Shown one piece after another: positions 2,827-36,361 of a stretch of 50,933 nucleotides of DNA. Every line of letters starts with the position of its first letter. The first letter of the stretch is position 1. The position numbers and the translations under genes were made by a program. The notes below the pieces were generated by a model. The model worked only from the letters and a program-made list of their open reading frames with translations, ran no database searches and was not told the DNA's origin. Origin of the DNA: Minisyncoccota bacterium (lineage in GTDB: Bacteria > Patescibacteriota > Minisyncoccia > Phycocordibacterales > UBA918); assembly GCA_021129515.1 (NCBI GenBank), contig JAJOLD010000006.1, positions 1 to 50,933 on the forward strand, written 5' to 3'.

Positions 2827-2921
2827 CAAAATTTTGACAAATACACTAAAATAGTGTATTATATTAATGAACGTTCATTCGAACTTCTCAATTCAAATTC
2901 CCAGCAATCAGGAGACCTCTC

Positions 2922-17356: not shown

Positions 17357-17412
17357 GAGTATATAAAAGAACGGCGCACAGAAATGTGCGCCGGTTTCTA
17401 TAGGGAAGACCC

Positions 17413-18829: not shown

Positions 18830-19003
18830 TTTGTCTTACTCGTACTAATTTGAAGAGTTGTATTGTGTAGGAACAATCCTGTTGAGAGTGTATCAGCTAG
18901 TGTTGTTTTGTAATATTGACACAAAACTTTTTTGTCATGTGCGGTCTATATTTGGTAAACGTGTGGCATACTTATTGAGTTCTTTTGAAGCAAGGAGTTA
19001 CGT

Positions 19004-19636
19004 ATGAGTAGACTTATTTGTATTGAAAGGTCCTGATGGTTCGGGAAAAACAACACTTTCAAAAAATTTGGTACGCACGCTGACTGAAGACAGTGTCGAG
19101 ACGATTTGCACGCGTGAGCCCGGAGGTACCGACGCAGGAAACAGTATTCGTGAGCTTGTGCTTCGGACTGATGTGGTACATGAAGCAAAGCTTTGTTTAT
19201 TTTACGCCGATCGCCTGCAACATTTGCATACTGTGGTGGTGTCGGCATTGCGGGCTGGAAAAACAGTCATTTCAGATCGTTCGGAATTGTCGACCTATAG
19301 TTACCAGGTACATCCCCATGAAGATGCAGTGTTGTTGGAGCTATTTCAGCATATGAGCAATCAAGTGCAGTCGGTGTTATCTGGGTTTCAGTGGACATGC
19401 TTGTTTGTCATTTGCCATATGAAGAGGCTGAAAGACGCATCCGTGACCGAATGGATGTTGGAGGTGAACATAACTCGTTTGATTGTGAACACGAACGGTT
19501 CAAGCGAGCAGTGCGCGATGGTATGCAACGAGGTCAGCAGCACCTCTGTGCTACCTATACCTTTCACGGTATCGATGCACAAGGTGACGAGCATGCGGTG
19601 TTGCATGAGGCTCGCACAACACTCGGGTATACGTAA
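19004..19636 (+). pseudogene. tmk: Thymidylate kinase with two compensating frameshifts
   Basis: AAGGAG (18992-18997) plus ATG 19004 gives MSRLICIE and then a stop. The P-loop GPDGSGKTT, TREPGGT and ISDRS are in the +1 frame from 19029. The C-terminus VDMLVCHLPYEEAERRIRDR.. returns to the first frame near 19385. Confidence 0.75.
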
Positions 19637-19746
19637 AGGTATCTTTCTATAAAAGCGGTCGATGTGGTTGTCCGCTTTTTATTAATGGTGATGCTCAATG
19701 CTTACAGATATTTACAACTAGGCAAAAAAACTTGTATCATAACAGT

Positions 19747-20076
19747 ATGAAATTTTCTGAGTATCAAAAACAATCTCGTGAGACCGTAGTGTATCCAGAT
19801 GCAGGCAATAATTACGTGTATCCAACACTCGGGCTTGCAGGCGAGGGTGGTGAAATTGCAAATAAAGTGAAGAAAATAGCGCGAGACAATGCAGGCACCT
19901 TGAGTGATGAGGTGCGAGAAGCTCTAAAGGGTGAACTTGGTGACGTGTTGTGGTACGCCGCACAGCTTGCCACAGAGCTTGACCTCTCACTTGAGGACAT
20001 TGCAGAAGAGAATATCGTAAGATTACAATCACGGAAAGCGCGGGGTACATTGCATGGTGACGGGGATACACGATAA
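19747..20076 (+). CDS. MazG-like nucleoside triphosphate pyrophosphohydrolase
   Basis: LGLAGEGGEIANKVKK and ELGDVLWYAAQLATELDLSLEDIAEENIVRL are typical all-alpha MazG motifs. Confidence 0.8.
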   Translation: MKFSEYQKQSRETVVYPDAGNNYVYPTLGLAGEGGEIANKVKKIARDNAGTLSDEVREALKGELGDVLWYAAQLATELDLSLEDIAEENIVRLQSRKARGTLHGDGDTR

Positions 20077-20132
20077 GTATGTTGTAGTAGCAGCACAACA
20101 GAATACGGATTACTAAACTAAGGATTTTTATC

Positions 20133-21401
20133 ATGCAGAACGACGACTACACATACATTGAAAAACAAGACAAGGAGATTTATAACGCCCTTGTGGGTGA
20201 GGAAGAGCGTGAGCGGAAGGGGATTGAAATGATTCCAAGCGAGAACTACGTGTCGCGAGCCGTTCGCGAAGCGAACGGCTCAGTGCTCACGAACAAATAC
20301 GCTGAAGGCTACCCGGGCAAGCGCTACTACGGCGGGCAGATGTACACCGATGTAGTTGAGCAAATTGCCATAGACCGCGCTAAAGAGCTTTTCAATTGTG
20401 CGTACGCTAATGTGCAGCCACTCTCAGGTGCACCAGCAAACATGGCAATGTACTTTGCACTCCTTGAGCCAGGCGATACGGTCTTGGGTATGCACCTCGA
20501 ACACGGAGGTCACCTGACACATGGACATCCGACCACGTCGATCAACAAAGTGTTCAACTTTGTGCGCTACCAAATGAAAGATGTTGAGACAGGGGAGATA
20601 GACTATGACGAACTTCGCCGCGTTGCGCATGAGCATAAACCAAAAATAATTCTCGCTGGATTCTCTGCGTACAGTCGTGAACTCGACTATGCGAAGTTTG
20701 TGGAAATCGCGAAGGAAGTGGGAGCGTACACAGTTGCCGATATGGCACACATCGCAGGACTCATTGCAGGGGGTGCTGCGCGAAACCCATTTGATGATGG
20801 GTTTGACGTCATCACCACCACGACACACAAAACACTGCGCGGACCACGTGGTGGGATGATTCTGGTGCGTGAAGACGCCGATATTGCAAAGCGTATCAAT
20901 AAAACAGTCTTCCCTGGGACACAGGGTGGTCCACATATGAACAACATTGCCGCAAAAGCTGTCGCCTTCCACGAGGCGCTCCAGCCAGCATTCAAAGAAT
21001 ATGCTGTGCAGGTCTTGAAGAATGCAAAAGCAATGGAAGCTGTGTTTAAGGATGCAGATATTCGTATGCTTTGTGGAGGTACAAGCAATCACCTTATCCT
21101 CGCAGACGTGTATGGCTCATTAGGACTCTCAGGAAAAGAGGCAGAGGCAGTGCTCGACGCAGTCGGCATTACGGTAAACAAGAACATGATTGCAGGTGAA
21201 GTACGCTCGGCGCTCGATCCTTCAGGTATTCGGTTTGGAACGCCTGCTATGACCACTCGTGGTATGAAAGAAGTGCAGGCAACCAAAATTGCGGAACTTA
21301 TGGTAGAGACACTCCGCAAAGATGGACGCGCACAGGAGGAAATCAAAAAGGAGCTAGAGGAACTGTGTGAAGCATTTCCAGTACCAGACACATTTGTGTA
21401 A
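20133..21401 (+). CDS. glyA: Serine hydroxymethyltransferase
   Basis: TTTTHKTLRGPRGG PLP-lysine motif, and SHMT-like sequence over the full length. Confidence 0.95.
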   Translation: MQNDDYTYIEKQDKEIYNALVGEEERERKGIEMIPSENYVSRAVREANGSVLTNKYAEGYPGKRYYGGQMYTDVVEQIAIDRAKELFNCAYANVQPLSGAPANMAMYFALLEPGDTVLGMHLEHGGHLTHGHPTTSINKVFNFVRYQMKDVETGEIDYDELRRVAHEHKPKIILAGFSAYSRELDYAKFVEIAKEVGAYTVADMAHIAGLIAGGAARNPFDDGFDVITTTTHKTLRGPRGGMILVREDADIAKRINKTVFPGTQGGPHMNNIAAKAVAFHEALQPAFKEYAVQVLKNAKAMEAVFKDADIRMLCGGTSNHLILADVYGSLGLSGKEAEAVLDAVGITVNKNMIAGEVRSALDPSGIRFGTPAMTTRGMKEVQATKIAELMVETLRKDGRAQEEIKKELEELCEAFPVPDTFV

Positions 21402-22660: not shown

Positions 22661-22732
22661 GTGTTGGGTGGATTGGTAATGTGGTGAGAATTTTTGTATT
22701 GTGTGTGGGATATTGCAAATATACGCTACGTT

Positions 22733-24412
22733 ATGAAATCTATTTTAGAGGAGGCAATTAAAAACGCACTGACAGAGCTTGGTCTTGACCATGTTGATTT
22801 TGTGGTGGAGCATCCGTCAGATATGGCGCATGGTGACTATGCAACCAATGTTGCAATGGTCCTCGCGAAGAAAGCTGGGAGAAATCCACGCGAGCTTGCG
22901 GAGGACATTATTGCAGCGCTCGATGGAAAGGTTGCTGCGGTGGCGCAGCTTGAGCTTGCAGGTCCTGGGTTTATTAACGTCCATCTCACACGTGATTTTT
23001 TTACGGAGCAAATCGTATACGCAAACAAGGAGGGTGCACAATGGGGAAGTAACGACATTGCGTCTGAAACCGAGGTTGTGCTCGAGTACACCAGCCCAAA
23101 TCTTTTCAAGCCACTCCATATTGGTAACTTAGTGGGGAATATTATTGGTGAATCACTCACGCGGCTCTTTGAGAACGCGGGAGCAACACTGTATCGCCTT
23201 AACTATCCGTCAGATATTGGTCCGGTGGTAGCAAAAGGTGTGTGGGGTCTTAAGTATCGTGGGCTTAATCCAGATAACATCGAAGACCTTGGTCGTGCCT
23301 ATGTAGCAGGTAATGAAGCGTACGAAGCTGGTGGCGCACAGAAAGAAGAAATCGATGCAGTCAACCGTGCTTTGTATGCTGGAGATGACGATGCATTGAA
23401 TGCATTGCGTGCTCGAGGTATTGCTACGTCACGTGCACGGCTCGCTGAGATTTGTACGGAGCTTGGCACTCATTTTGATTTTGAGATTTTAGAAAGTGAA
23501 TCTGGTCCAATTGGGTCTGAGATTGTGAAAAAACATGTTGATGATGTATTTGAAGTGAGTGATGGTGCTGTTGTCTACCGAGGTGAGCAGGTGGGACTCC
23601 ATACGCGTGTCTTTATCAACTCGCAAGGGCTGCCAACATACGAGGCTAAAGACCTTGGCAACTTCACGATAAAACAAAAAAAATATCCCAACTGGACGCA
23701 TTCGATTATTGTCACTGGTGGTGAGCAGGCTGAGTACTTTAAGGTGCTCTATGCCTCGATTCGTGCTCTATGGCCAGAAGCGAAAGCAAAAAACTTAGAG
23801 CACATTCCAACCGGCTTTCTCACACTCACAACGGGTAAGATGTCCTCTCGAAAAGGAAATGTACTGACCGGAGAGTCGCTTCTTGCTGAGTTGAAGGAAG
23901 CGGTGCAAGAAAGAGCAGCAGCATCACGCGCGGAAGATGTTGAGAAACTCGCATCGCAGCTCGCTGTTGGTGCGCTCAAGTTCCAGATTCTTAAGCAAAA
24001 GGTAGGTATGAATATTGTGTTTGATAAGGGGCGAGCATTGTCGTTTGAGGGTGACTCAGGTCCCTATGTGCAGTACACCCATGCGCGCATCTCCTCACTC
24101 ATACAAAAGGCTGACGCTGAAGGCATTACCGCACATTACAACACAGTTCCCGACACGACGTATGCGATAGAGAAGTTTCTCTATCGCTTTAATGAAGTAA
24201 CGAGTATGGCGCTTGAGGCTCGTGAGCCCCATCATCTGGTGACGTACTTGCTTGAGATCGCAAGTGCTTTCAACACCTTCTATGCGCAAGAAAAGATAGC
24301 TGATGCGGATGATGCATATGCACCATACAAACTCGCACTTACACAGGCGGTAGGGCAGACGATTAAAAATGGACTATGGATGCTGGGTATTGAAGCGCCA
24401 GAGCGGATGTAG
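22733..24412 (+). CDS. argS: Arginyl-tRNA synthetase
   Basis: KPLHIGNLVG (HIGH) and TGKMSSRKGN (KMSK-like). Start chosen at MKSILEEAIKNAL. Confidence 0.92.
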   Translation: MKSILEEAIKNALTELGLDHVDFVVEHPSDMAHGDYATNVAMVLAKKAGRNPRELAEDIIAALDGKVAAVAQLELAGPGFINVHLTRDFFTEQIVYANKEGAQWGSNDIASETEVVLEYTSPNLFKPLHIGNLVGNIIGESLTRLFENAGATLYRLNYPSDIGPVVAKGVWGLKYRGLNPDNIEDLGRAYVAGNEAYEAGGAQKEEIDAVNRALYAGDDDALNALRARGIATSRARLAEICTELGTHFDFEILESESGPIGSEIVKKHVDDVFEVSDGAVVYRGEQVGLHTRVFINSQGLPTYEAKDLGNFTIKQKKYPNWTHSIIVTGGEQAEYFKVLYASIRALWPEAKAKNLEHIPTGFLTLTTGKMSSRKGNVLTGESLLAELKEAVQERAAASRAEDVEKLASQLAVGALKFQILKQKVGMNIVFDKGRALSFEGDSGPYVQYTHARISSLIQKADAEGITAHYNTVPDTTYAIEKFLYRFNEVTSMALEAREPHHLVTYLLEIASAFNTFYAQEKIADADDAYAPYKLALTQAVGQTIKNGLWMLGIEAPERM

Positions 24413-24413
24413 C

Positions 24414-24446
24414 ACATGGGTAAGGGGTTCGACCCCTTACCTATGT
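24414..24446 (+). terminator. GGGGT-N3-ACCCC hairpin after argS
   Basis: ACATGGGTAAGGGG-TTCG-ACCCCTTACCTATGT, with no T run. Confidence 0.45.
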
Positions 24447-24581
24447 GTGCATAACACCGTTGTGGGTTGCACAGATATTTTTTTCGTTATATAAAATAGC
24501 GTTTGCTTTGACTTTGGGCAAAGTCAAAGAAGGACGGGCCCCTGTGCGCGCAGGGTAGAAAGTACTTTTGAGGAAATAAAA

Positions 24582-25136
24582 ATGCTACAACAGAAGCAAC
24601 GAACGACGTGTTCTGTGAATGATTGGTTATATTCGGGCATTGCTCATCCAGATGATGTGGTGAGCTTGTGTATAAAAACGTGTAAGCCGGAACACCTTAC
24701 GGCTCCGCTGTGGATTAAGGTTTGTTCATCAAAAAACCTGCCTGGGTTGGTATTTTATTTTGATGTGTTGCCTGACCGGACCACGATTATTGAAAAAGTG
24801 CAGGAAGGTATCACTGCGTTTCGTAGAGTGCAATGCACTTCGTCACAGCGCTTGATCATAAACGATCTTGTGTTTTGGGCTCCAGAGCCGTTGGACGAGT
24901 CACTAGCGTTACTTCGTGGATACTATTCCTTTTGCAATACTCCTATTCGTACTATTAAGGTGAGAATGGGTACGAGAGTGACACTGGTATATGATCACGA
25001 GCAGGATGCGGACAGTCCGTTTGATGTGCTACAAGCTCATTTGAACCGATATGGTTTCAGACCTGTCGAGTCAGAGCATTCCAAAGGTTTGGAGGCCGCT
25101 GCGGCGCTTGTAGACAGCAATCTTGCACATGCGTAA
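24582..25136 (+). CDS. Hypothetical protein (orphan)
   Basis: GAGGA SD 8 nt before the ATG, and a terminator at 25156-25192. Confidence 0.55.
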   Translation: MLQQKQRTTCSVNDWLYSGIAHPDDVVSLCIKTCKPEHLTAPLWIKVCSSKNLPGLVFYFDVLPDRTTIIEKVQEGITAFRRVQCTSSQRLIINDLVFWAPEPLDESLALLRGYYSFCNTPIRTIKVRMGTRVTLVYDHEQDADSPFDVLQAHLNRYGFRPVESEHSKGLEAAAALVDSNLAHA

Positions 25137-25155
25137 CTAAAAGAGCTAACTGCTC

Positions 25156-25192
25156 AAAACCACGGAAGAAAGGAAACTTCCGTGGCTTTTTA
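25156..25192 (+). terminator. Rho-independent terminator
   Basis: CCACGGAAG...CTTCCGTGG followed by CTTTTTAT. Confidence 0.75.
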
Positions 25193-25298
25193 TTTTCTTG
25201 ACCTCGACACTCGTGCAGTATATAAAGGAAAGACACCCACTCTTGACGTGGTATAGGGGTGACGGGTGCGTTCTGACATAGACGATGGGAGAAGACGG

Positions 25299-25688
25299 AT
25301 GACAGGTGAATTGATTTTGCGAACAACCTTTTCAATAGCTGATAAAGAACCATTTGCATCATCTGGCACGACACCAGACAGTGTGACTGACGACATTATG
25401 CAGTATATGAATCCTGATTCAGGGGATAATACCGTGATGTACGATGGTGCTCGGGTAACGCTGAGTATGGCATACAGCGGCAGTAACAGTGGTGAAATTG
25501 GCAATCCGCAGGTGGCAGACTTTGAACTCGACTCACCAATGGATGCAGGTTTATTTCGTGAAAAAATTCGGGAGCAGGTCACAAAGCTACAGGAAGCGTT
25601 TTTTACCGATGCACAAAACCAGGGTGTCGGTCGTTCAAAAAAAAGCATCGACCGCTCTGGCGGTGGTCGGTACAATCCAGCTTCCTGA
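25299..25688 (+). CDS. Hypothetical protein (orphan); 3' end uncertain because of an A8 run
   Basis: Its composition is more protein-like than the antisense 197-aa ORF. The A8 run at 25637-25644 allows an alternative C-terminus ending at 25740. Confidence 0.45.
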   Translation: MTGELILRTTFSIADKEPFASSGTTPDSVTDDIMQYMNPDSGDNTVMYDGARVTLSMAYSGSNSGEIGNPQVADFELDSPMDAGLFREKIREQVTKLQEAFFTDAQNQGVGRSKKSIDRSGGGRYNPAS

Positions 25689-25765
25689 AAGTCGTGACAG
25701 TGCATATAAACAAACGGTGAGAGTCCATCCTGGACACTAGTAAAGCACCATAAACTCCAACCAAG

Positions 25766-25796
25766 AAAGGTCACGAACACCATGTGGCCTTTTTTA
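25766..25796 (+). terminator. Rho-independent terminator
   Basis: AGGTCAC...GTGGCCT (one G-U pair) followed by TTTTT. Confidence 0.6.
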
Positions 25797-25935
25797 TTGA
25801 GTAATTATGCTGCAAACTTTGGTAGTACACACATAGTACCTATTGTTGGTTGTATAAATGTTCGTACAGGCGTATAAAGAGTTTATACCTGCCCAATATT
25901 TGGGGAGAGGTGTTCACAGGTCAAAGGAGAAGATA

Positions 25936-26406
25936 ATGGAGACACATACACTATGCATGCGTGTTCGAGGTGATGCACGAGAATATCAGCATTCTACTGG
26001 TCGGGAAACAGATATTGGGTACACTGTATCCAACATCCACAGCGGGGTGCAATCACTTCCTGATTGGAAAGGTGAAAAAGGACAGCGGGCAACGTATCCA
26101 AAATGGGTAGTCACGCAAGTTGATGGTGAAGAGATAGATTTTTTATTCTCACCCGTGTGGGATAACCAACGACATACATCTACTGCATTTTGCAATCGGG
26201 TAAATGTGCAGTGGCAGTTCTATACTACGCTTGCGCAACAGATGTCAGGACCAGTGTTTGTCACAATAAACGATGATCATAGTTATGCAGTCCACCAAGA
26301 ACCTAATGGGTTTGTTTCGGTGCTTGCAGACTACCTTGAGTACCTGAATGAAAAACTCAGGTTAATCACACTCCACTGTGGTGAGTATCGGTTCCCATGT
26401 ACATGA
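25936..26406 (+). CDS. Hypothetical protein (orphan)
   Basis: AAGGAG SD 6 nt before ATG 25936. The ORF is open from 25858. Confidence 0.55.
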   Translation: METHTLCMRVRGDAREYQHSTGRETDIGYTVSNIHSGVQSLPDWKGEKGQRATYPKWVVTQVDGEEIDFLFSPVWDNQRHTSTAFCNRVNVQWQFYTTLAQQMSGPVFVTINDDHSYAVHQEPNGFVSVLADYLEYLNEKLRLITLHCGEYRFPCT

Positions 26407-26549
26407 CCGCATACAAACGAGTTTGATAGTTTGGAAAGATTCATGCGTATTTTTCCGAAAAAAATGCATGCGTGCTATAAAATCGCAGAGAAGGGAGATT
26501 CGGTCACATGTCACCCAATTACTCTGTGAGTGTATCAACCTACTCAATG

Positions 26550-26595
26550 AAAGCCCTGCGGTTCCACCAACGACGTGGAAGGGCTTTTTTGTTTT
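26550..26595 (+). terminator. Strong terminator or attenuator hairpin upstream of ileS
   Basis: AAAGCCC/GGGCTTT and TTCCAC/GTGGAA stems with a 5-nt bulge, followed by TTTTTTGTTTT. Confidence 0.65.
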
Positions 26596-26782
26596 GGCAG
26601 ACACCGACGTTTGTTCTGTGCAAATTGTAAAAAAGTGCTAGGATAGGACGTATCCGCATGACTCTATCAGTGTACGGTGACATGAATAGGTGTGCGGGCG
26701 TGTCTGATACACACGGCTGATGTACTTCTCGGATTGCGAGTTGTACATCGGGATTATTATGTCTGATATACATATCATAAGT

Positions 26783-29700
26783 ATGAGTGATAAGAATAAG
26801 TATAAAGAGAATGTGACTGCGTCACATTCTGAAGATGGTGTAAAGAGCGACGTTGCACGTCGCGAAGAGGACGTGCTCGCATTTTGGAACGAGCATGACA
26901 TTTTTAATAAAAGCCTAGAAAAAGAATCACCCGAGGGTGATTTTGTATTTTATGACGGGCCGCCGTTTGCAACGGGTCTGCCGCACTATGGGCATATTTT
27001 GGCAGGGACTATTAAAGACGCAATCCCGCGCTTCTGGACGATGAACGGTTACCATGTGAAGCGAAAGTGGGGATGGGATTGTCATGGGTTGCCGCTTGAA
27101 AATATTATTGAGAAGCGACTTGGATTTTCTACCAAGCGCGACATTGAAGAATTTGGTATTAAAAATTTTAATGAAGCAGCACGAGACGCGGTGATGGAGT
27201 ATGCAGACGATTGGAAACAGGTTATCCCGCGCATGGGTCGTTGGGTAGATATGGAAGATGACTACAAGACCATGGACCCTACCTATACTGAGTCTGTGTG
27301 GCATGTGTTTAGTGAGCTCTATAAGAAGGGGTTGGTGTATGAAGGGTTTAAGAGCATGCACCTGAGTCCACGTAGTGGTACCACGTTGTCGAACTTTGAA
27401 GTTAATCTTGGGTATAAAGACATTAAAGATATTGCGGTTACGGTGAAGTTGCCACTCCTTGATGAAGCTGGCGAGGTGACTGATACATCGCTTCTTGTAT
27501 GGACCACCACCCCATGGACATTGCCGGGCAACATGGCAGCAGCGGTTCATAATGATCTCGAGTACGAGTGCGTAGAAGTAGAAACTGATGCGGGAAAAGA
27601 AAAATATATTTTGGCCAAGGAACGACTTATACAGCTTGGTGATATTCCATATCAAGTGCTGGAAACCATTCTCGGAAGCGCCTTGACGGGTAAGAAATAT
27701 CAACCACCATTCCCATGGCTCGGTGAACAGAAATTTGAAGGTAAAGATACGGCTTGGACTATCTACCACGCTGACTACGTCGAAGTAGGTGAGGAAGGAA
27801 CGGGAGCGGTACACATTGCCCCTGCCTACGGTGAGGAAGACCTCGCACTCGCGCAGGAAGAAGGTATCCCAATTGTGCATCATGTCGACTACGAGGGGCG
27901 TTTCATGGACTTCGTTACTGACTTTGCTGGGCAGCTTGTCAAGCCAAAGGATGACGATGATGCGGGCGTCACGCACCTTGATGCTGATATTGAGATTGTG
28001 AAAGCACTGAATGCGTCAGGGAAACTCTTTAAGAAAGAAAATATCACCCACAGCTATCCACACGATTGGCGCAATGGTGCACCACTTCTCAACTATGCAA
28101 CTACATCATGGTTTGTTGCGGTAACAAAAATCAAGGAAGAGCTTGTTGCTGCGAATAATACCGTGCACTGGGTGCCTGAACATGTCGGCACTAATCGGTT
28201 CGGAAAGTGGCTTGAGGGTGCGCGCGATTGGGCGGTCTCACGGCAGCGATACTGGGGTGCGCCGCTGCCGATTTGGCAGAATCCTGAAACTAAAGACTTC
28301 AAAGTGCTTGGGTCACTGCAAGAGATTCGAGAGCATGTACGTCGGTCAGGGAATGCCTTTTTCTTGATGCGTCATGGGGAGGCGGATTCTAATGTCACAG
28401 GCTTCTCAAGCACCAAGATAGACGCAGCGAACCCAATGACTGAAAACGGTACGGCGCAAGTTGCTGATGCGCTGGTGGGACTCAAAGAGAAAAATATTGA
28501 CCTTATTATTGCATCACCATTCCAGCGCACTCGTGAAACTGCTGAGCAAGTTGCAGAAGGACTCGGTATCGCAAAAGACGCAATTGTATACGACGAACGT
28601 ATCGGCGAGGTGCAGTTGGGGGCGATTGATGGGGTGAGTACCGAGGAGTACCACCAGTTTCTCGATGAGGGCGGGTTGTGGTGCGAGTCTGCACCCGAAG
28701 GTGGTGAGTCATGGTCTGATGTGAAGCGGCGTGTGGGTGCGTTCCTCTATGACACTGACAAAGCATATGAAGGAAAGAATATTTTGGTCATTGCACACAA
28801 CAGCCCGCTACAGATGCTGGGTGCGGTCAATGATGGATTGTCACTGCGTGATGAGGCATTTGCCTATGATGCTGATGGCAAACGATACAACAATGCTGAG
28901 GTGCGTGAGTTGCCATTTGTGCCTATGCCACACAACGACAACTATGAGCTCGACTATCACCGACCGTATATCGATGATATTGAACTGTATGACTTTGACC
29001 CGAATGCACCTGAAGGTGCACGGGCAGGTGGCACCAAGCTCGAACGGGTGCCTGATGTCTTTGACTGTTGGTTTGAGTCGGGCGCAATGCCGTATGGGCA
29101 GCAGCACTATCCGTTCGAAAACCTTGATCAGTTCGACCCTGAGACGGGGAAGGGGTATCCAGCAAACTTCATCGCAGAAGGGCTTGACCAAACGCGTGGG
29201 TGGTTCTACTCACTCATTGTGCTGGGGACGGCACTCTTTGGGAAGTCGCCGTACCAGAACGTGATTGTAAACGGACTGGTACTTGCAGAAGACGGGAAGA
29301 AGATGAGTAAGTCGCTCCAGAACTATCCCGACCCAATGGAACTTGCTGATCGTGTGGGTGTCGATGCGATGCGCTTCTACCTCCTCTCCTCACCAATTAT
29401 CCGTGCTGAGGACCTTAATTTTGCAGAGCAAGGTGTCCTTGAATTGCAGCGAAAGAATATTGGACGGTTGCACAACGTACTTGCGATGTACGAGCAATAT
29501 GCAGACGAGTACACGAAAGCAGATGCAACCTCAACACAGGTCTTAGACCGCTGGATTCTCGCACGCCTCCATGAACTCACACGCGATGTTACTGCAGGAT
29601 TCAAAGGCTATGAACTCGATAAGGCAACGCGACCGATTACTGACTTTATTGATGATCTTTCGGTGTGGTATCTCCGCAGATCTAGAGATAGGCTGAAAAA

Positions 29701-30376
29701 TTCTGAAGATAGTACAGACAAAACAGCGGCACTGAGCACGCTGAAGTATGTGCTTCGAGAACTTGCGCTTGTGATGGCGCCATCGATGCCGTTCTACTCA
29801 GAGTATCTCTACCGCCGCGTGAAGGAAGAAAGTGATATGGAGAGTGTGCACTTAGCGCAGTGGCCTGAAACTGCTGCAGTAGACGAGGAGGTCTTGGCTG
29901 ACATGGCAACCGTGAGGCAAACGGTCACCCTCGCACTTGAGGCGCGTGCAAAGGCGGGTATCAAAGTGCGACAGCCACTTCAAACACTCACCGTGAAGCA
30001 AGAATCTGTCGTGGCTGATGTGGCATACAAAACACTTATTGCAGATGAGGTGAACATAAAGGAGGTTGTTGCTGATGCATCGCTAGAGCATGAAGTTGTA
30101 CTTGATACTGAAATTACCCCAGCACTCCAGGCAGAAGGCAATGCCCGTGAGTTTATGCGTCACGTACAAGACGCACGCAAGAAAGCAGGACTCCAGCCAG
30201 ACGATGTCATTGTGCTTACCGTGACTGACGCAACCAAGGCGCTTATTGGTGTCCATGGGGAAATAGTCGCGATCACCGTCGGTGCGAGCGAGATTACCAC
30301 TGAGAATCTGGGAGAAGACGCACTTGTCGCGAAAGTCGATGGTACCGACTACCAGTTCACCATCACACTCATGTAA
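26783..30376 (+). CDS. ileS: Isoleucyl-tRNA synthetase (type 2-like) carrying an inserted histidine-phosphatase domain
   Basis: GLPHYGHILAG (HIGH), KKMSKSL (KMSKS) and DWAVSRQRYWGAPLPIW. The start is ambiguous (26720, 26759 or 26783). Confidence 0.92.
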   Translation: MSDKNKYKENVTASHSEDGVKSDVARREEDVLAFWNEHDIFNKSLEKESPEGDFVFYDGPPFATGLPHYGHILAGTIKDAIPRFWTMNGYHVKRKWGWDCHGLPLENIIEKRLGFSTKRDIEEFGIKNFNEAARDAVMEYADDWKQVIPRMGRWVDMEDDYKTMDPTYTESVWHVFSELYKKGLVYEGFKSMHLSPRSGTTLSNFEVNLGYKDIKDIAVTVKLPLLDEAGEVTDTSLLVWTTTPWTLPGNMAAAVHNDLEYECVEVETDAGKEKYILAKERLIQLGDIPYQVLETILGSALTGKKYQPPFPWLGEQKFEGKDTAWTIYHADYVEVGEEGTGAVHIAPAYGEEDLALAQEEGIPIVHHVDYEGRFMDFVTDFAGQLVKPKDDDDAGVTHLDADIEIVKALNASGKLFKKENITHSYPHDWRNGAPLLNYATTSWFVAVTKIKEELVAANNTVHWVPEHVGTNRFGKWLEGARDWAVSRQRYWGAPLPIWQNPETKDFKVLGSLQEIREHVRRSGNAFFLMRHGEADSNVTGFSSTKIDAANPMTENGTAQVADALVGLKEKNIDLIIASPFQRTRETAEQVAEGLGIAKDAIVYDERIGEVQLGAIDGVSTEEYHQFLDEGGLWCESAPEGGESWSDVKRRVGAFLYDTDKAYEGKNILVIAHNSPLQMLGAVNDGLSLRDEAFAYDADGKRYNNAEVRELPFVPMPHNDNYELDYHRPYIDDIELYDFDPNAPEGARAGGTKLERVPDVFDCWFESGAMPYGQQHYPFENLDQFDPETGKGYPANFIAEGLDQTRGWFYSLIVLGTALFGKSPYQNVIVNGLVLAEDGKKMSKSLQNYPDPMELADRVGVDAMRFYLLSSPIIRAEDLNFAEQGVLELQRKNIGRLHNVLAMYEQYADEYTKADATSTQVLDRWILARLHELTRDVTAGFKGYELDKATRPITDFIDDLSVWYLRRSRDRLKNSEDSTDKTAALSTLKYVLRELALVMAPSMPFYSEYLYRRVKEESDMESVHLAQWPETAAVDEEVLADMATVRQTVTLALEARAKAGIKVRQPLQTLTVKQESVVADVAYKTLIADEVNIKEVVADASLEHEVVLDTEITPALQAEGNAREFMRHVQDARKKAGLQPDDVIVLTVTDATKALIGVHGEIVAITVGASEITTENLGEDALVAKVDGTDYQFTITLM
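28340..28948 (+). other. Histidine phosphatase superfamily (PGAM-like) domain embedded in ileS
   Basis: FLMRHGEADSN, ASPFQRTRETA, GGESWSDVKRR and LVIAHNSPL. All four catalytic signatures are in frame. Confidence 0.8.
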
Positions 30377-30399
30377 CACGCGTGTCGCAGCCGCGCGTG

Positions 30400-30436
30400 C
30401 ACTACTCTCTACCATCTACCTACTAATTACTACATT
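30400..30436 (+). promoter_or_regulatory. G-free CACTAC-N3-CTAC leader before recO
   Basis: CACTACTCTCTACCATCTACCTACTAATTACTACATT then ATG. It is preceded by the GC hairpin ACGCG...CGCGT. Confidence 0.55.
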
Positions 30437-31012
30437 ATGCCCTACAAGGTATACATCACCGATGCGCTCGTATGCGGACATAAAAACCTCAATACCTCCG
30501 ACAAGGTCTACCAACTCTTTACCCGAGAGGCGGGAATGCTTTGGGTGACCGCGCAGAGTGTCCGTATGGAAAAATCTAAACACCGATACGCACTGCAAGA
30601 TTTTTCTCACATACGGGTGTCACTCGTTCGAGGGAAGGGAGGATGGAGAATTGTTAGCAGCGAAGTACAAGACAACTTGTACTACACCACGAGTAATCGC
30701 TATACACGCGCAACCGTACGTAATGTACTACGACTACTCCGTCGTGTGGTGCGCGGGGAAGAAGCACATGCTGGATTATTTGATGATGTGATGCATGGTT
30801 TTGCACATCTGGGTGTGGTTGCTGATACGCCCCTTGAAACGGTGCTGATGCTGCGTATTATGTATGCACTCGGATATGTGCCTGCGGCTGCGCACTATGA
30901 TGCGGTGCTTGCTGAAAACTACGAGTATACTACAGTAGAGGCACTTACCTCAGACGCCCTTACGGCATGCAAAACAACACTCACACAAGCTATCGCACAC
31001 AGCCAGTTATAG
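30437..31012 (+). CDS. recO: DNA repair protein RecO (short form)
   Basis: N-terminal OB-fold pattern ..LFTREAGMLWVTAQSVR..SKHRYALQDF..., with 191 aa overall. Confidence 0.6.
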   Translation: MPYKVYITDALVCGHKNLNTSDKVYQLFTREAGMLWVTAQSVRMEKSKHRYALQDFSHIRVSLVRGKGGWRIVSSEVQDNLYYTTSNRYTRATVRNVLRLLRRVVRGEEAHAGLFDDVMHGFAHLGVVADTPLETVLMLRIMYALGYVPAAAHYDAVLAENYEYTTVEALTSDALTACKTTLTQAIAHSQL

Positions 31013-31024
31013 AGGGTGTTGCGC

Positions 31025-33058
31025 ATGCTATACTCACCACATATGCCCATGACACCGCAATCACCACACGAACACACTCCGCATCCAAAAAAGGATACTG
31101 AACATGATCCGCGCGAATCGTTGCGTTCGCGGGTGAGTCATTCGGAGGGTATTGAATCAATGCGCGACAGGCTCTATCAGCGTGGTAATACGCAGGCGCC
31201 AACCAAGCGAACCAAGCTTATCGACACGTCTATTCGCACGCCGCGGACTTCCTGGGAACAGCCACCAGTGACAACAAGTGCTACATCAGAAACAATGCAA
31301 GATGCGCTTGCACAGACATCTATGGGTACAAAACGTAAAAAAACATATCGAGTAAAGCTTGTCCTTGCAGGGATATTCTTCTTTGTGGTTGCTATGGGTC
31401 TTTCTAGTGCATTTTTGTATTTTGGTACTAACTCAATTTCAGGCAGCAATATTGCCATTGATGTATCAGGACCATTTTCCATTGGTGGCGGTGAAGAAAT
31501 ACCGATTCAAATTTCAGTCGCCAATCAAAATACGGTATCAATTGAATCAGCAACACTCATTGTTGAGTACCCAGCCGGGACACAATCGACAACCGAACGA
31601 GGTAAGGAGCTGTTTACCGAACGTATCCCACTCAATGATATTGGCACCGGTGAAGTGGTGAATGTACCTGCTCGAGCTATTGTCTATGGTGAAGAAAATG
31701 AAGAAAAAGAGGTGACCGTATCGGTAGAGTATCGTGTCAGCGGTTCGAATGCGACTTTCTTTAAAGAAGCAGACCCTCTTCGCTTTAAAATCAACTCATC
31801 ACCAGTTGCAATGCGTGTCGAGACAGTCGAGAAAATATCTTCAGGTGAAGAAATTGCCGTGCAGGTTGTGGTGTCATCAAATGCCCCAACCGAGATAACA
31901 GACATTTTAGTTAAAGCAGCATATCCATATGGCTTTGATTATTCGACAGCTTCTCCAGAGCCTGTGTCAGGACAAGATGTCTGGCATATTGCATCCTTGG
32001 CACCTGAAGAAACAAAAGTCATAGATATTACAGGTATTATTGTGGGAAAACAAAACGATGAACGAGTCTTCAATTTCTCAACAGGTGTGCCAAACGAACG
32101 TGACCCATATGCACTCGCATCTATCTTTTCTACCACTGATGTCGGTGTGCAAATGGAAGATCCGTTCCTTGGCATTACTGTGAGTGTCAATGGGAAAGAG
32201 AATGATATTGTGGTGATTGAACCTAAAGAGAGTGCAGTGGTGCGTATTAATTTTACCAATACCCTGAATGACACACTCTATGATGGGATTGTTGAGGCAA
32301 AGCTTGATGGTAACGCACTCAACGAAATTACCATCAATAGCGCAGAAGGTTTCTACGATTCAACAACAAATACCATTACATGGGATTCTGTGGATGTAGG
32401 GTCATTGTCTGAGCTACTTCCCGGTGGTAGTAGTCAAGTTGATTTTCAGTTAGTATCGAGCAAGGATGCTGCACAGACACCAGAAATAAATCTTGAAGTG
32501 TCAGTCAAAGGGCGTCGTGTCTTTGAAGACCGGGTACCACAAGAACTCAATGGCGGTGTGTCACGGATTATCCGTGTTGAGAGTGCGGTGACATTTGCTT
32601 CTTCGGTACTCCATTCAGCAGGACCGTTTACCAACACTGGTCCTGTGCCACCAGTTGCAGAAGAAGTGACGCAGTACACTCTTGATTTATCGGTGGAAAA
32701 TGGAAGTAACGATATCACGCTCGCCGAAGTGACTGCTGTGTTGCCGCCATATGTCACTTGGCTTGATTTAAAAACAGCTGATGATGTTGTGGTCTATGAT
32801 GCAGTAAATCGTTTGATGACATGGACCATTGGAGATATGGATGCAAATACTCGTGAGACCGCTTCGGTGCAGGTCTCAGTGACTCCGAGTCTCAACCAAA
32901 TCGGCACCGTACCAAATATACTTGAGTCACAGCAGTTTAAAGCCACTGACCGATTTACCGGCACTGTACTTCGCGCATCCACTCCTGCAATTACAACGAT
33001 GTTATTGGAAGATCCCTACCACGAAGCACGTTCAGGCGGGCAAGTACAAGCACCGTAA
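31025..33058 (+). CDS. Membrane-anchored surface protein with repeated beta-rich domains
   Basis: Disordered N-terminus, a single TM helix (LVLAGIFFFVVAMGLSSAFLYF), then about 540 aa of Ig/CARDB-like beta-rich sequence. GAGGG lies 9 nt before ATG 31025. Confidence 0.6.
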   Translation: MLYSPHMPMTPQSPHEHTPHPKKDTEHDPRESLRSRVSHSEGIESMRDRLYQRGNTQAPTKRTKLIDTSIRTPRTSWEQPPVTTSATSETMQDALAQTSMGTKRKKTYRVKLVLAGIFFFVVAMGLSSAFLYFGTNSISGSNIAIDVSGPFSIGGGEEIPIQISVANQNTVSIESATLIVEYPAGTQSTTERGKELFTERIPLNDIGTGEVVNVPARAIVYGEENEEKEVTVSVEYRVSGSNATFFKEADPLRFKINSSPVAMRVETVEKISSGEEIAVQVVVSSNAPTEITDILVKAAYPYGFDYSTASPEPVSGQDVWHIASLAPEETKVIDITGIIVGKQNDERVFNFSTGVPNERDPYALASIFSTTDVGVQMEDPFLGITVSVNGKENDIVVIEPKESAVVRINFTNTLNDTLYDGIVEAKLDGNALNEITINSAEGFYDSTTNTITWDSVDVGSLSELLPGGSSQVDFQLVSSKDAAQTPEINLEVSVKGRRVFEDRVPQELNGGVSRIIRVESAVTFASSVLHSAGPFTNTGPVPPVAEEVTQYTLDLSVENGSNDITLAEVTAVLPPYVTWLDLKTADDVVVYDAVNRLMTWTIGDMDANTRETASVQVSVTPSLNQIGTVPNILESQQFKATDRFTGTVLRASTPAITTMLLEDPYHEARSGGQVQAP

Positions 33059-33219
33059 GTAGTATACGTAGTTGGTATAGAGGATTCGATACGCTCACGT
33101 GAGAGAACAAAAGTGAAGATTCTGTTCGTGGTGACCGCTTTGTCACCGCAAGCATGGTGTATTTCATGCTACATAAGCACTGGATTAATCCATAATATGC
33201 AGGTATAGTACGGGAATTA

Positions 33220-33293
33220 AATGAAGAAATGAGCGCAAGCGACTATTCTAAATTTAGTTCCCAATTTCTTCCTGACCTAGAAGAAATTGCTGG
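33220..33293 (+). repeat. Structured tandem repeat upstream of glyQS, copy 1
   Basis: AATGAAGAAA...CGACTATTCTAAATTTAG..CAATTTCTTC-CTGACCTA-GAAGAAATTGCTGG. Confidence 0.75.
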
Positions 33294-33341
33294 AACACTA
33301 AGCAGTATCAAATGATAATGACCGAAAACAACACAATGGTG

Positions 33342-33436
33342 AATGAAGAAAGGAATGAGAAGGTCTGGGAGACCTTCGAATCGACTATTCTGAATTTACA
33401 TCTCAATTTGCCCCTAGTCTAGGGCAAATTGCTAGG
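33342..33436 (+). repeat. Structured tandem repeat upstream of glyQS, copy 2
   Basis: AATGAAGAAA...CGACTATTCTGAATTTAC..CAATTTGCCC-CTAGTCTA-GGGCAAATTGCTAGG. The stem covaries with copy 1. Confidence 0.75.
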
Positions 33437-33488
33437 TGCTCGTATGTTAAATAATGTTTTAAATATGAAAGAAGAAGGTAACTCAAAA

Positions 33489-34853
33489 ATGGAAAAGATC
33501 GTATCGCTCTGCAAGCGACGAGGGTTTGTCTTCCAAGGTAGTGAAATTTATGGAGGCTTAAAGGGAACCTGGGACCATGGACCGCTTGGTGTCGCACTCA
33601 ACAACAACATAAAGCGCGAGTGGTGGAAGCTGTTTGTCGATAGTCGTGAAGATATGTATGGATTGGATGCTGCAATCATCATGAATGCAAAAACATGGGA
33701 TGTTTCAGGACATACTGGTTCTGGTTTTTGTGACCCACTGGTAGAAGACTCAGAGACGGGTGAGCGTTTCCGCGCTGACCACCTCTTGAAGGACCATGGT
33801 ATTGACGCAGAAGGTATGTTGCTTGAGGAAATTGATGGCATTATTGCAGAAAAAGGAATCAAAAGCCCAAAAGGAAATACACTCTCTCCAGCGCGGCAGT
33901 TTAACCTTATGTTTGAAAGTCGTATTGGTGCAACTGCGGGGGATGAAGGAAAAGTATATCTGCGACCAGAAACTGCGCAGGGTATTTTTGTAAACTTTAA
34001 AAATGTTGTGGATGCAATGAGTCCCAAGATGCCCTTTGGTATTGCGCAGATTGGTAAAGCATTTCGCAACGAAATTGCGCCGCGCGAGTTTCTTTTCCGC
34101 GTACGTGAGTTTGAACAAATGGAGATTGAATATTTTGTAAAAGAAGAGCACTGGGAGGAGGAATATGAGAAACTCCGAAAGGACATCCAGGTGTGGCACA
34201 AACACCTCGGACTTCGTGACGAAAATATCCGCGAGTATGAGGTGCCCGATAATGACCTTGCTCACTACTCGAAGCGTACTATCGACTTTGAATACAACTA
34301 TCCGGGCAAGGGCTTTGATGAACTTGCAGGTTTTGCGTACCGCACCGATCACGACCTTAAAAGCCATATGGAAGCAAGTGGTGTGTCTCAGGAGTATATT
34401 GAGCCAGATGGATCGCGGTATATTCCACATGTGCTCGAACCATCCTTTGGTATTGGGCGCGCAATTACGGCAGTGCTCTGCGAGGCATACACTGAAGACG
34501 AAATGGGTGGTGATACGCGCACGTATCTCAAACTTCCTGCGCACCTTGCACCGTACCGCGCAGCAGTCTCGCCGCTTTTGAAGAACAAGCCGCAGCTCGT
34601 AGAAAAAGCACGCGAGGTATTTACCATGCTGAAAAAGGAATTTGGCAATATCGCGTGGGACGATAACGGCAATGTAGGGAAGCGGTATCGTCGTCAAGAT
34701 GAAATCGGTACTCCTGCATGTATCGTTATCGACTTCGATACCTTGGGAGATGAGAAACCCGAACACAAAGACACGGTCACCGTACGTGACCGCGACACAG
34801 GCGAGCAGGAACGATTCAAAATTGAGGATTTAGTCGCTAAGCTTTCAGAATAA
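33489..34853 (+). CDS. glyQS: Glycyl-tRNA synthetase (dimeric class II type)
   Basis: MEKIVSLCKRRGFVFQGSEIYGGLKGTWDHGPLGVALNNNIKREWW is the canonical N-terminus. Confidence 0.92.
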   Translation: MEKIVSLCKRRGFVFQGSEIYGGLKGTWDHGPLGVALNNNIKREWWKLFVDSREDMYGLDAAIIMNAKTWDVSGHTGSGFCDPLVEDSETGERFRADHLLKDHGIDAEGMLLEEIDGIIAEKGIKSPKGNTLSPARQFNLMFESRIGATAGDEGKVYLRPETAQGIFVNFKNVVDAMSPKMPFGIAQIGKAFRNEIAPREFLFRVREFEQMEIEYFVKEEHWEEEYEKLRKDIQVWHKHLGLRDENIREYEVPDNDLAHYSKRTIDFEYNYPGKGFDELAGFAYRTDHDLKSHMEASGVSQEYIEPDGSRYIPHVLEPSFGIGRAITAVLCEAYTEDEMGGDTRTYLKLPAHLAPYRAAVSPLLKNKPQLVEKAREVFTMLKKEFGNIAWDDNGNVGKRYRRQDEIGTPACIVIDFDTLGDEKPEHKDTVTVRDRDTGEQERFKIEDLVAKLSE

Positions 34854-34870
34854 CCCAAGAATCTTGCTGT

Positions 34871-34902
34871 CGTCATTGCGAGCGGCATGCGAAGCAATCT
34901 AG
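34871..34902. repeat. Half copy of the palindromic element family
   Basis: CGTCATTGCGAGCGGCATGCGAAGCAATCTAG. Only the right arm is present. Confidence 0.6.
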
Positions 34903-34921
34903 TAGTTATAGTACGTACACT

Positions 34922-36361
34922 ATGTCTGAGAAAAAACCAAAATACATCACCACCACGTTGCCATATGTAAACGCAGACCCACATATTGGGTTTGGACTTG
35001 AGATTGTGCAAGCCGATACGCTTGCGCGCTATTATCGTCTTATGGGTGAAGAGGTGTTTTTCACGACGGGTACCGATGAGCACGGACAAAAAATCGCACA
35101 AAAAGCAGATGAAGCAGGGCGTGACCGTCAGGAATATGTTGACCACTTTGCGGGTGAGTTCAATCGACTCAAAGATGCACTCAATCTCTCATACGACACC
35201 TTCATCCGTACTACCGATGCCAACCACATTGCCGCTGCACAAGAGATGTGGAAGCGATGCGATGCAGCTGGTGATATTTATAAGAAAAAATACAAAGGAC
35301 TCTATTGTGTCGGTGATGAAATGTTTGTAAAGGAGTCAGACCTCGTCAACGGGAAATGCCCGAATCACCCCACACAAGATCCAATCGAAGTTGAGGAAGA
35401 GAACTATTTCTTCAAACTCTCAAACTATCAGGAGTACCTCGAGGAGTATCTCTCACAAGAAGGGGTAATAGAGCCCGAATGGCGACGGCAGGAGGCGCTG
35501 AAGTTCGTACAAGGTGGTCTAGAAGATTTCAGCATTTCACGCGAGGTGTCACGTATGGACTGGGGTATCCCGGTTCCAGGAGACGATGCGCATGTCATGT
35601 ATGTGTGGTTTGATGCGCTCACCAACTACATCTCAACGACCGGCTGGCCCGAGGAAAACGGTAACTTTACAAAATTTTGGGAGGAGGGTGAAACACTCCA
35701 GCTTGGCGGTAAGGACCAAGTGCGCTTCCAGTCAATTATGTGGCAGGCAATGCTTAAGAGCGCAGGTGTTGCGGCAACCGACAAGGTCTTCTACCACGGC
35801 TTTATCAATAGTGGGGGACAGAAGATGAGTAAGTCATTGGGGAATGTTATTTCGCCGTACGAGCTTGTCGAGAAGTATGGTACCGATGCAACCCGCTACA
35901 TCCTCCTTCGCCACGTACATCCATTCGATGACTCCGATCTCACCTGGGAAAAGATGGACGAATACTATACCGCGAACCTCGTGAATGGTTTGGGAAACCT
36001 CACTGCACGTATTATGAAAATGGCAGAGACACATCTCGATGGACCTATCGAGCGACCCGAGACAGCAGGATTTGACACTGCATATACTGATGCATTCGAC
36101 ACGTGTAACTTCCAAGCAGCCTGTGACTTCGTGTGGCAAAAGGTAGGAGCACTCGACGAGAAAATCACCGAAACAGAACCATTCCGACTCGTAAAGACCG
36201 ACAAGGAAGCCGCGGTGCAGATAATCAAGGAATTAGTACACGACCTCTATATGGTGGGGCGTATGCTCAATCCAATCATGCCCGAGGCGAATGTCATTAT
36301 CAAAGAAGCCGTCCTCGCAAACAAAAAACCCGACAATCTTTTTGCACGGTTAGAAACATAA
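34922..36361 (+). CDS. metG: Methionyl-tRNA synthetase (minimal, no C-terminal appended domain)
   Basis: YVNADPHIGFG (HIGH-like) and QKMSKSLGNVI (KMSKS). Confidence 0.93.
   Translation: MSEKKPKYITTTLPYVNADPHIGFGLEIVQADTLARYYRLMGEEVFFTTGTDEHGQKIAQKADEAGRDRQEYVDHFAGEFNRLKDALNLSYDTFIRTTDANHIAAAQEMWKRCDAAGDIYKKKYKGLYCVGDEMFVKESDLVNGKCPNHPTQDPIEVEEENYFFKLSNYQEYLEEYLSQEGVIEPEWRRQEALKFVQGGLEDFSISREVSRMDWGIPVPGDDAHVMYVWFDALTNYISTTGWPEENGNFTKFWEEGETLQLGGKDQVRFQSIMWQAMLKSAGVAATDKVFYHGFINSGGQKMSKSLGNVISPYELVEKYGTDATRYILLRHVHPFDDSDLTWEKMDEYYTANLVNGLGNLTARIMKMAETHLDGPIERPETAGFDTAYTDAFDTCNFQAACDFVWQKVGALDEKITETEPFRLVKTDKEAAVQIIKELVHDLYMVGRMLNPIMPEANVIIKEAVLANKKPDNLFARLET

Follow-up and report, generated by a model that had tools for sequence, protein, structure and literature searches.

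Why should an enzyme that charges tRNA with isoleucine carry a second, phosphatase-like enzyme in the middle of its chain? This question is raised by a 50,933-nucleotide (nt) stretch of DNA from an ultra-small bacterium of the Minisyncoccota (Patescibacteria/CPR; assembly GCA_021129515.1, contig JAJOLD010000006.1, positions 1 to 50,933 of the forward strand; hereafter the window). An initial annotation, made from the sequence alone, had noted there a catalytically intact histidine-phosphatase domain within ileS, the gene for isoleucyl-tRNA synthetase (IleRS). Few enzymes have been studied as thoroughly as the aminoacyl-tRNA synthetases (aaRS), and where these carry accessory domains, additional biology (for instance editing, signalling or resistance) usually comes to light. 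To our knowledge, a dephosphorylation step is part of no textbook scheme of isoleucylation. The comparative data presented below suggest that the insert is an active phosphatase and a dedicated functional partner of IleRS, a reading to which we assign a probability of roughly 70%. An apparently active phosphatase would thereby be linked to IleRS throughout a bacterial radiation that is very large and poorly understood.

The inserted domain and its host enzyme

Counted from its first ATG, the ileS open reading frame (ORF; Table 1) encodes 1218 amino acids (aa) and a complete type-2 IleRS, which bears out the unusual length remarked upon in the initial annotation. The true start is probably M22 at nt 26783 because homologues span about 1165-1180 aa, with M14 at nt 26759 as a possible alternative. 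The protein scored 876.7 bits against the NCBIfam equivalog model for ileS (TIGR00392, cut-off 621.4), the match falling into two stretches. Likewise, the Pfam domain tRNA-synt_1 was broken into two stretches that flank the insert, and DUF5915 was found at the C-terminus, as in type-2 enzymes. Searches of the Protein Data Bank (PDB) returned type-2 IleRS with E-values from 6e-215 to 8e-191, versus 3e-98 or weaker for the enzyme of S. aureus and other type-1 IleRS; the closest solved structures were those of yeast IleRS (8WND), T. thermophilus IleRS (1ILE) and P. megaterium IleRS2 (8C8U). The synthetase body is alike to these three throughout, including HYGH, KMSKS, CP1 editing, the anticodon-binding domain and DUF5915, with Foldseek E-values of 1e-55 to 1e-69. 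Residues 360-374 fit the pattern GTGxVHxAPxxGxxD, which together with TTTPWT we take to mark the editing site of IleRS. Judged from these motifs, the synthetic site looks intact and the editing site apparently so, and the synthetase looks fully functional. Membership of the mupirocin-resistance families MupA and MupB (NF000257 and NF000258; 643 and 629 bits versus 1900) was rejected, as was that of ileS_w_GNAT (NF040702; 314 bits versus 1999), and no GNAT match was obtained in the Pfam scan.

According to the initial annotation, an in-frame module of about 200 residues at 28340-28948 takes the place of a short linker of type-2 IleRS, and represents a domain insertion in the synthetase body rather than a neighbouring gene. 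The interval translates into 203 residues without a single stop. Alignments with solved and insert-less IleRS set the exact junctions at aa 540 and 743 (28337-28948; 204 residues, in frame), at most one codon from the original placement. The three type-2 structures match residues 43-538 and 768-1120 of the window protein, and in yeast IleRS residues 490-513 span the part between 538 and 768. Five insert-less IleRS from Patescibacteria have 6-15 residues at the insertion point, between ...GS.xEL... and D.H[RK]..[IV]D, and in other IleRS overall 6-22 residues separate RYWGxPLPIW from DxHRPYID. The segment is thus no normal IleRS subdomain, since both solved and insert-less enzymes lack it. The proposal of a domain insertion was further upheld by the profile match, the fixed junctions, the confident fold, the invariance of the catalytic residues and the clade-wide conservation described below.

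In the nomenclature used for yeast IleRS, which distinguishes CP core, CP1/editing, CP2 and CP3 (PMC11685878), the insertion site appears to lie in CP3, with the RYWGxPxPxW strand on one side and the DxWFESG/KMSKS half of the Rossmann fold on the other. In insert-less Patescibacteria IleRS the 6-15-residue turn is flanked by CxxC and CxxC/CxC pairs that form a Zn knuckle. Several insert-bearing relatives retain the knuckle cysteines on both sides of the insert; in the window protein they are lost. As both cysteine pairs are gone, the second replaced by a 13-residue insertion private to this protein, the window IleRS has probably lost zinc binding at CP3. The chain returns to CP3 through a linker whose consensus in insert-bearing IleRS is P-H-N-x-x-Y-E; neither free-standing phosphatases nor insert-less IleRS have it. 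PHN is followed by D in the window and by D, E, K, A, S, P, T, H or F in the representatives.

The inserted segment gave a strong match to the Pfam family His_Phos_1 (E=1.2e-27 and 97 bits within the full protein, E=4e-29 for the segment alone; 97-102 bits versus a gathering threshold of 21.7). All four histidine-phosphatase signatures named in the initial annotation lie where it had placed them, namely RHG at aa 551-553, FQRTRE at 601-606, GGESW at 661-665 and IAHNS at 691-695. R551, H552, N558, S599, R603, E663, R671 and H693 were invariant in 121 of 121 aligned sequences, and R, H, S, R, T, E and H remained invariant across 20 representatives with only 32-51% identity in the insert region. 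With a median identity of 46%, versus 70% for the synthetase body, the insert is the faster-evolving part of the protein. The invariance of the active site therefore points to selection on it, since the insert overall is much less conserved than the body. The domain was also confidently modelled by AlphaFold2 (AF2), with a predicted local distance difference test (pLDDT) score of 87-95 within the full-length model, and a pLDDT of 88 and a predicted template-modelling score (pTM) of 0.87 for the domain alone; the full-length model as a whole was moderate (pLDDT 76.5, pTM 0.64). On these sequence and model data, the insert is almost certainly a catalytically competent histidine phosphatase, in agreement with the initial description of the domain as catalytically intact.

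To which kind of histidine phosphatase does the domain belong? The top Foldseek matches were PspA, GpgP, HFP, PhoE and CobC (TM-score 0.72-0.80, identity 21-28%), all of them small-molecule phosphatases, and PspA was the best PDB match both by sequence and by fold. By these similarities the domain is a member of the short PhoE/CobC/PspA-like phosphatase group in branch 1 of the histidine phosphatase superfamily. Membership of the individual families was rejected for PspA phosphoserine phosphatase (NF045917; 61.8 versus 350 bits), CobC alpha-ribazole phosphatase (TIGR03162; 69.6 versus 162.9) and the dPGM mutases (pgm_1, TIGR01258, 17.5 versus 81.7; dPGM_arch, NF038349, 76.5 versus 225). Because the dPGM, CobC and PspA cut-offs all failed, the earlier label 'PGAM-like' holds for the fold and not for a mutase. 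The match to SixA was weak (34 bits versus a cut-off of 74.5), and the best NCBIfam match, PRK07238 at 82 bits, stayed far under its cut-off of 326. The domain has no nucleic-acid-binding appendage. Its net charge has a median of -3 with a wide range, and is -16 in the window insert, in an organism whose proteins are acidic overall.

Each part of this architecture has a known counterpart. PhoE/YhfR (1EBB, 1H2E), CobC (6NRU, 6E4B), PspA (4IJ5), the mycobacterial GpgP Rv2419c (4PZ9) and the riboflavin-pathway enzyme HFP (9MMH) have the fold, the size of about 190 aa and the full catalytic set in common with the insert, but these are stand-alone enzymes, none of which is tied to a synthetase, whereas the insert is embedded in one. 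Conversely, the type-2 IleRS of known structure have a 6-22-residue turn in the CP3 loop where the window protein has a 204-residue enzyme domain. The leucine-specific domain of LeuRS and other CP3 insertions of class Ia synthetases appear to occupy the same topological site, between the RQRxWGxPxP strand and the DxWFxSG/KMSKS half, as judged from the alignment and the nomenclature of PMC11685878; those insertions are small and non-enzymatic, while the window insert has an autonomous enzyme fold. A precedent for IleRS with a second catalytic domain is provided by NF040702, where this domain is GNAT instead of a phosphatase. In Rv2228c-type RNase H/CobC-like acid phosphatases (PRK07238), the same type of phosphatase is fused to a nucleic-acid enzyme, but end to end and with another partner, unlike the internal insertion seen here. 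In keeping with the initial annotation, which named no described role for a phosphatase embedded in an aaRS, the full-text literature that we searched (subscription journals outside its coverage) contained no description of IleRS or any other aaRS paired with a histidine phosphatase. Public entries for insert-bearing IleRS, of which there are hundreds, are named only 'class I tRNA ligase family protein' or 'isoleucyl-tRNA synthetase'. The insert thus represents a real, widespread and apparently undescribed accessory enzyme of IleRS.

Table 1. Features of ileS, the inserted module and the flanking synteny anchors in the window
Feature	Position (nt)	Strand	Basis
argS, synteny anchor 5' of ileS; separated from ileS by the free-standing phosphatase gene in sister lineages	22694-24412	+	
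ileS, type-2 IleRS with internal phosphatase module	26720-30376	+	Pfam, TIGR00392, solved relatives
HIGH-type motif HYGH (aa 89-92)	26984-26995	+	Invariant in homologue alignment
CP1 editing signatures TTTPWT (aa 262-267) and GTGAVHIAPAYGEED (aa 360-374)	27503-27841	+	Conserved in homologue alignment
Upstream half of CP3/Zn knuckle (RYWGAPLPIWQNPETKDFKVLGSLQEIREHV); CxxC pair of relatives gone here	28247-28336	+	Alignment
Inserted module: complete His_Phos_1 domain and C-terminal linker	28337-28948	+	Pfam, alignment, AF2
Pfam His_Phos_1 (PF00300) match, aa 548-702	28361-28825	+	Pfam
RHG motif: R551, H552 (predicted phospho-accepting nucleophile), G553	28370-28378	+	R and H invariant, 121/121
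N558, phosphate-pocket asparagine	28391-28393	+	Invariant, 121/121; nearly so in distant homologues
R603, second phosphate-binding arginine	28526-28528	+	Homologue alignments
E663, predicted general acid	28706-28708	+	Homologue alignments
H693, distal histidine	28796-28798	+	Homologue alignments
PHNDNYE linker returning the chain to CP3	28928-28948	+	Alignment
Downstream half of CP3 (LDYHRPYIDD ... DCWFESG)	28949-29083	+	Alignment
Window-private 13-aa insertion (FDPNAPEGARAGG), aa 759-771, at the site of the second Cys pair of the Zn knuckle	28994-29032	+	Alignment
KMSKS motif (aa 861-865)	29300-29314	+	Invariant in homologue alignment
recO-like gene, downstream synteny anchor	30437-31012	+	

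Distribution of the insert and its free-standing counterparts

The spread of the insert was surveyed among IleRS homologues, protein clusters and GTDB species genomes. All 120 of the closest IleRS homologues (62-69% identity; from NCBI, JGI, ENA and Logan) contained PF00300. An exhaustive HMMER search with the insert alone against 1.84 billion representatives clustered at 50% identity identified 549 clusters matching at E<=1e-10. Among the best 150 of these, 101 had IleRS sequence on one or both sides of the domain and one had TsaC as its host; the remainder were free-standing phosphatases, fragments or tandem phosphatase repeats. The insert was found in at least 55 GTDB species loci, all titled Patescibacteria among the matches listed, with names that include Paceibacterota, Nomura-, Zambryski-, Wolfe-, Colwell-, Yanofsky- and Falkowbacteria as well as Parcubacteria. 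One insert-bearing IleRS (P0003) is labelled 'Candidatus Azotimanducaceae bacterium' in NCBI, a name we take to denote a gammaproteobacterial family; all other named sources were Patescibacteria, and P0003 probably stems from a mis-binned contig, not from transfer. A neighbour-joining tree of the phosphatase domains was star-like and unresolved.

These numbers leave next to no room for an assembly chimera, an intein or another artefact. The architecture recurs in hundreds of independent assemblies from the four data sources, with an open reading frame and conserved junctions. A chimera or a neighbouring gene was ruled out by the homologue, cluster and GTDB counts, and an intein or mobile in-frame element was rejected as the Pfam scan contained no Hint domain and splice-junction residues were absent, the HN of the linker being followed in the window by D instead of the C, S or T of an intein.

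The strongest evidence of a functional link to IleRS comes from the upstream stand-alone gene in sister lineages. The nearest non-IleRS relatives of the insert are complete, free-standing Patescibacteria proteins of about 187-205 aa with 35-42% identity, which are labelled 'histidine phosphatase family protein' or 'PhoE'. Their genes lay upstream of an insert-less ileS in six of the six contigs with a readable downstream gene; a seventh contig (L064), which stops just past the phosphatase gene, is outside this count. In L057 the order is argS, phosphatase and, after a 1-nt spacer, ileS (931 aa); in L059 a CYTH gene separates the phosphatase from ileS, again behind argS; in L061 and L062 the phosphatase gene is located immediately 5' of ileS; in L063 other genes take the place of argS and the phosphatase stop overlaps the ileS start; and in L065 the downstream IleRS is 54% identical to that of the window. 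In most contigs examined, the phosphatase gene overlaps the ileS start or sits only a few bases away. The free-standing proteins (for example P0194, P0306, P0294, P0342 and P0380) resemble the insert in their invariant residues, their phylum and their argS-ileS-recO setting, but they are separate polypeptides without the PHNxxYE linker.

The window and the relatives with a free-standing phosphatase share the order argS, ileS, recO, DUF11-like gene and class II aaRS, and this order is kept in 42 insert-bearing loci among the matches listed. No second phosphatase gene was found within 10 kb of ileS in the 55 insert-bearing loci listed, nor in the window. Moreover, argS abuts ileS in at least 10 insert-bearing loci, which therefore have no space for a separate phosphatase gene. 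Across more than 60 loci, the two states, a gene before ileS or a domain inside its product, are complementary, which is a classic sign of functionally coupled proteins. Judged from gene order and domain content, they are two interchangeable arrangements of one IleRS-phosphatase partnership.

Other genes were noted near the free-standing phosphatases. The CYTH (triphosphate-tunnel) gene of L059 (10570-11160) places another phosphohydrolase in this operon-like array. In two relatives, reverse-transcriptase genes lie just 5' of the phosphatase-ileS pair (L063 1313-2819, L059 6890-7663); the one of L063 is paired with a bAvd accessory gene and resembles a diversity-generating retroelement.

Some Patescibacteria IleRS hold not one but two to four phosphatase modules, at four different sites overall. 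One protein has two modules in tandem at CP3 (P0266), two combine a module at CP3 with one after the KMSKS region (P0253, P0221), and one has a module at CP3 and another about 60 residues downstream (P0158). The latter site is also used by a protein with a single module there and none at CP3 (P0240). The largest number, four modules, was found in P0126, with one in the CP-core/CP2 region and three in tandem. Two of the extra module sites are each backed by two independent clusters, and every module of the multi-copy IleRS retains the R-H, R, E and H residues. The same phosphatase clade is also fused to the C-terminus of TsaC/Sua5, the threonylcarbamoyl-AMP synthase, in four protein clusters (P0202, P0388, P0389, P0390). 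In L066 the neighbours of this fusion gene (1964-3292) encode a CCA-adding enzyme with an HD domain, TGT, a queuosine-salvage protein and TruD. The TsaC fusion is a weak clue to function because TsaC of Patescibacteria joins many unrelated domains, including MGMT (MGMT-C), TruB, a 2H/CPDase phosphoesterase, NUDIX, GNAT and an AAG-type glycosylase.

Possible role of the phosphatase in isoleucylation

The pattern described above, in which a phosphatase occurs either as the upstream gene or as one to four spliced domains, is of the Rosetta-stone type and gives strong comparative support to the view that isoleucylation in these bacteria requires, or benefits from, a dephosphorylation step. By analogy with the family, H552 would attack a phosphomonoester, which gives a phospho-histidine intermediate; the phosphate would be held by R551, R603, N558 and H693, and E663 would protonate the leaving group. 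The expected substrate class is that of phosphomonoesters or, less typically, phosphoanhydrides or phosphoramidates. Such a mechanism suits phosphomonoesters including a tRNA 2'/3'-phosphate, and suits Ap4A poorly; the initial annotation had raised both as speculative substrates. In view of the topology, the module probably sits, tethered, at the entrance to the synthetic site, because CP3 is the site of the leucine-specific domain of LeuRS, beside the KMSKS loop.

What could be dephosphorylated there? Our guess places a nucleotide-type small molecule before a phosphorylated tRNA-Ile end. More specifically, we tentatively consider a small molecule made or bound at IleRS, with AMP as the first guess, although the odds are against this particular assignment. 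AMP is favoured because it is the sole phosphomonoester among the small-molecule ligands of IleRS, and enzymes of the PhoE type have been reported to accept it. Its removal would clear an inhibitory product or tune aminoacylation; pyrophosphate (PPi) would be a less canonical alternative substrate. We lean towards a small molecule because the nearest characterised relatives act on such substrates, because the domain tolerates several insertion sites and copy numbers, because TsaC is likewise an enzyme that converts ATP to an acyl-AMP and PPi, because the domain has no RNA-binding appendage and, as weak evidence, because its median net charge is below zero.

Several points weigh against this interpretation. 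No substrate-specific signature was found, the domain remaining under every NCBIfam equivalog cut-off. AMP and PPi are made by all 20 synthetases, so that the AMP/PPi idea leaves the restriction of the partnership to IleRS unexplained. Hydrolysis of AMP would be costly for organisms that are thought to be unable to make purines, and PPi is not a canonical substrate of branch-1 histidine phosphatases. CP3 may simply be a permissive loop, and with its many unrelated partners TsaC lends little weight as a fusion host.

If the substrate were the tRNA itself, the module would heal tRNA ends: by taking a 2'- or 3'-phosphate off the tRNA-Ile acceptor end, it would allow a tRNA blocked by a nuclease or toxin to be charged on IleRS. 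In a variant of this scheme, it could act on the product of cyclic-phosphate opening or on a pyrophosphorylated CCA end. tRNA is the common target of the two fusion partners, IleRS and TsaC, and IleRS uses t6A37 as an identity element. TsaC of this phylum has further fusions, to 2H cyclic phosphodiesterases and to TruB, and next to the TsaC-phosphatase gene lie those for TGT, TruD and the HD-containing CCA-adding enzyme. In E. coli, the HD domain of the CCA-adding enzyme is a precedent for a phosphatase in a tRNA 3'-end enzyme. CP3 furthermore probably lies near the acceptor-end entry, going by the leucine-specific domain of LeuRS. End-healing is nevertheless unlikely in our view. The domain shows neither an RNA-binding extension nor a consistent basic charge, the window insert being strongly acidic, and its close structural relatives are all small-molecule enzymes. 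A general tRNA repair activity would be expected on the CCA-adding enzyme and not on one synthetase, the four tolerated insertion sites argue against a need for precise geometry, and we know of no tRNA-Ile-specific damaging agent in these organisms. Unless such an insult exists, the restriction to IleRS counts against a tRNA substrate as well. The broader proposal, that IleRS in much of the Patescibacteria carries an RNA-repair or counter-toxin activity that unblocks 2'/3'-phosphate, cyclic-remnant or pyrophosphorylated tRNA-Ile ends, is more doubtful. If true, this would be the first case of a tRNA end-healing enzyme built into an aminoacyl-tRNA synthetase, and the copy number and insertion site would mirror an arms race with tRNA-targeting nucleases or kinases.

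About as doubtful is a scenario in which a housekeeping phosphatase unrelated to isoleucylation uses ileS for constitutive co-expression and the loops of the synthetase happen to tolerate it. No IleRS-specific chemistry can be named for the phosphatase, CP3 is a known variable site and several loops accept the domain, reduced genomes often pack unrelated neighbours together, and promiscuous fusions are common in the phylum, as TsaC illustrates. Yet the adjacency is specific for ileS and survives the loss of argS in L063, and the upstream-gene and insert states complement each other. Four independent sites in an essential enzyme, together with two to four intact copies, are hard to explain without selection for proximity, and the only hosts among the best 150 of the 549 clusters were IleRS and, once, TsaC. 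HipA-type toxins phosphorylate GltX and TrpS, and on this model the domain might be a protein phosphatase that removes an inhibitory phosphoryl group, placed by a kinase near the KMSKS/ATP site, from IleRS itself or from a bound factor. The superfamily includes the protein or phospho-histidine phosphatases SixA, PGAM5 and Sts-1, the weak SixA match fits this idea, and a module attached in cis at any of several surface loops around the catalytic domain would be well suited to dephosphorylate its own enzyme. This remains improbable, since the fold neighbours are small-molecule enzymes and not SixA or Sts, no conserved kinase was seen in the neighbourhoods of the contigs with an upstream phosphatase gene, and we know of no toxin that phosphorylates IleRS. 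Even less credence is due to a non-catalytic sensor or scaffold that would bind a phosphorylated metabolite, or add bulk or tRNA contacts, and so modulate IleRS allosterically. Its position would match that of the leucine-specific domain of LeuRS, which modulates aminoacylation without catalysis of its own; but the nucleophilic His and the general-acid Glu, needless for binding, are invariant in every copy examined, including the extra and free-standing ones.

If the phosphatase is indeed an active and dedicated partner of IleRS, as we favour, the identity of its substrate could reveal a new level at which minimal cells control the quality of tRNA or nucleotides. The insert is also a natural case in which a class I synthetase accommodates an enzyme domain at four different loops, which is useful for engineering and annotation.

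Other genes in the window

In the window, the interval 24582-26406 between argS and ileS is where relatives carry the phosphatase gene or where argS abuts ileS. It contains three ORFs without a Pfam match (24582-25136 on the forward strand, 25190-25783 on the reverse strand and 25858-26406 on the forward strand). In the 310-nt gap upstream of ileS no Rfam family (T-box or other leader RNA) was detected at the gathering threshold, and a terminator-like hairpin at 26562-26590 was the sole feature seen there; a second such hairpin lies at 25160-25185 in the argS-ileS interval. Four aaRS genes are encoded on one strand within 14 kb (22694-36361), in an order conserved in many Patescibacteria loci. 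Beyond argS and ileS, this array comprises a class II aaRS gene with an HGTP anticodon domain (33429-34853) and a metG-like gene (34922-36361), interleaved with recO and a gene for a DUF11/CLIPPER-like surface protein.

Further away, the ORF at 7556-8659 (367 aa) encodes two ATP-cone stretches and, of ribonucleotide reductase, no more than the N-terminal all-alpha domain. It does not include the catalytic barrel and may be a truncated, split or regulatory fragment of the reductase; the next large ORF encodes a GH18 glycosidase. Finally, a pyrimidine/one-carbon cluster at 16226-21401 contains genes for a bifunctional-type dCTP deaminase (16226-17356), ThyX (18005-18829, reverse strand), thymidylate kinase (19023-19652) and SHMT (20133-21401).

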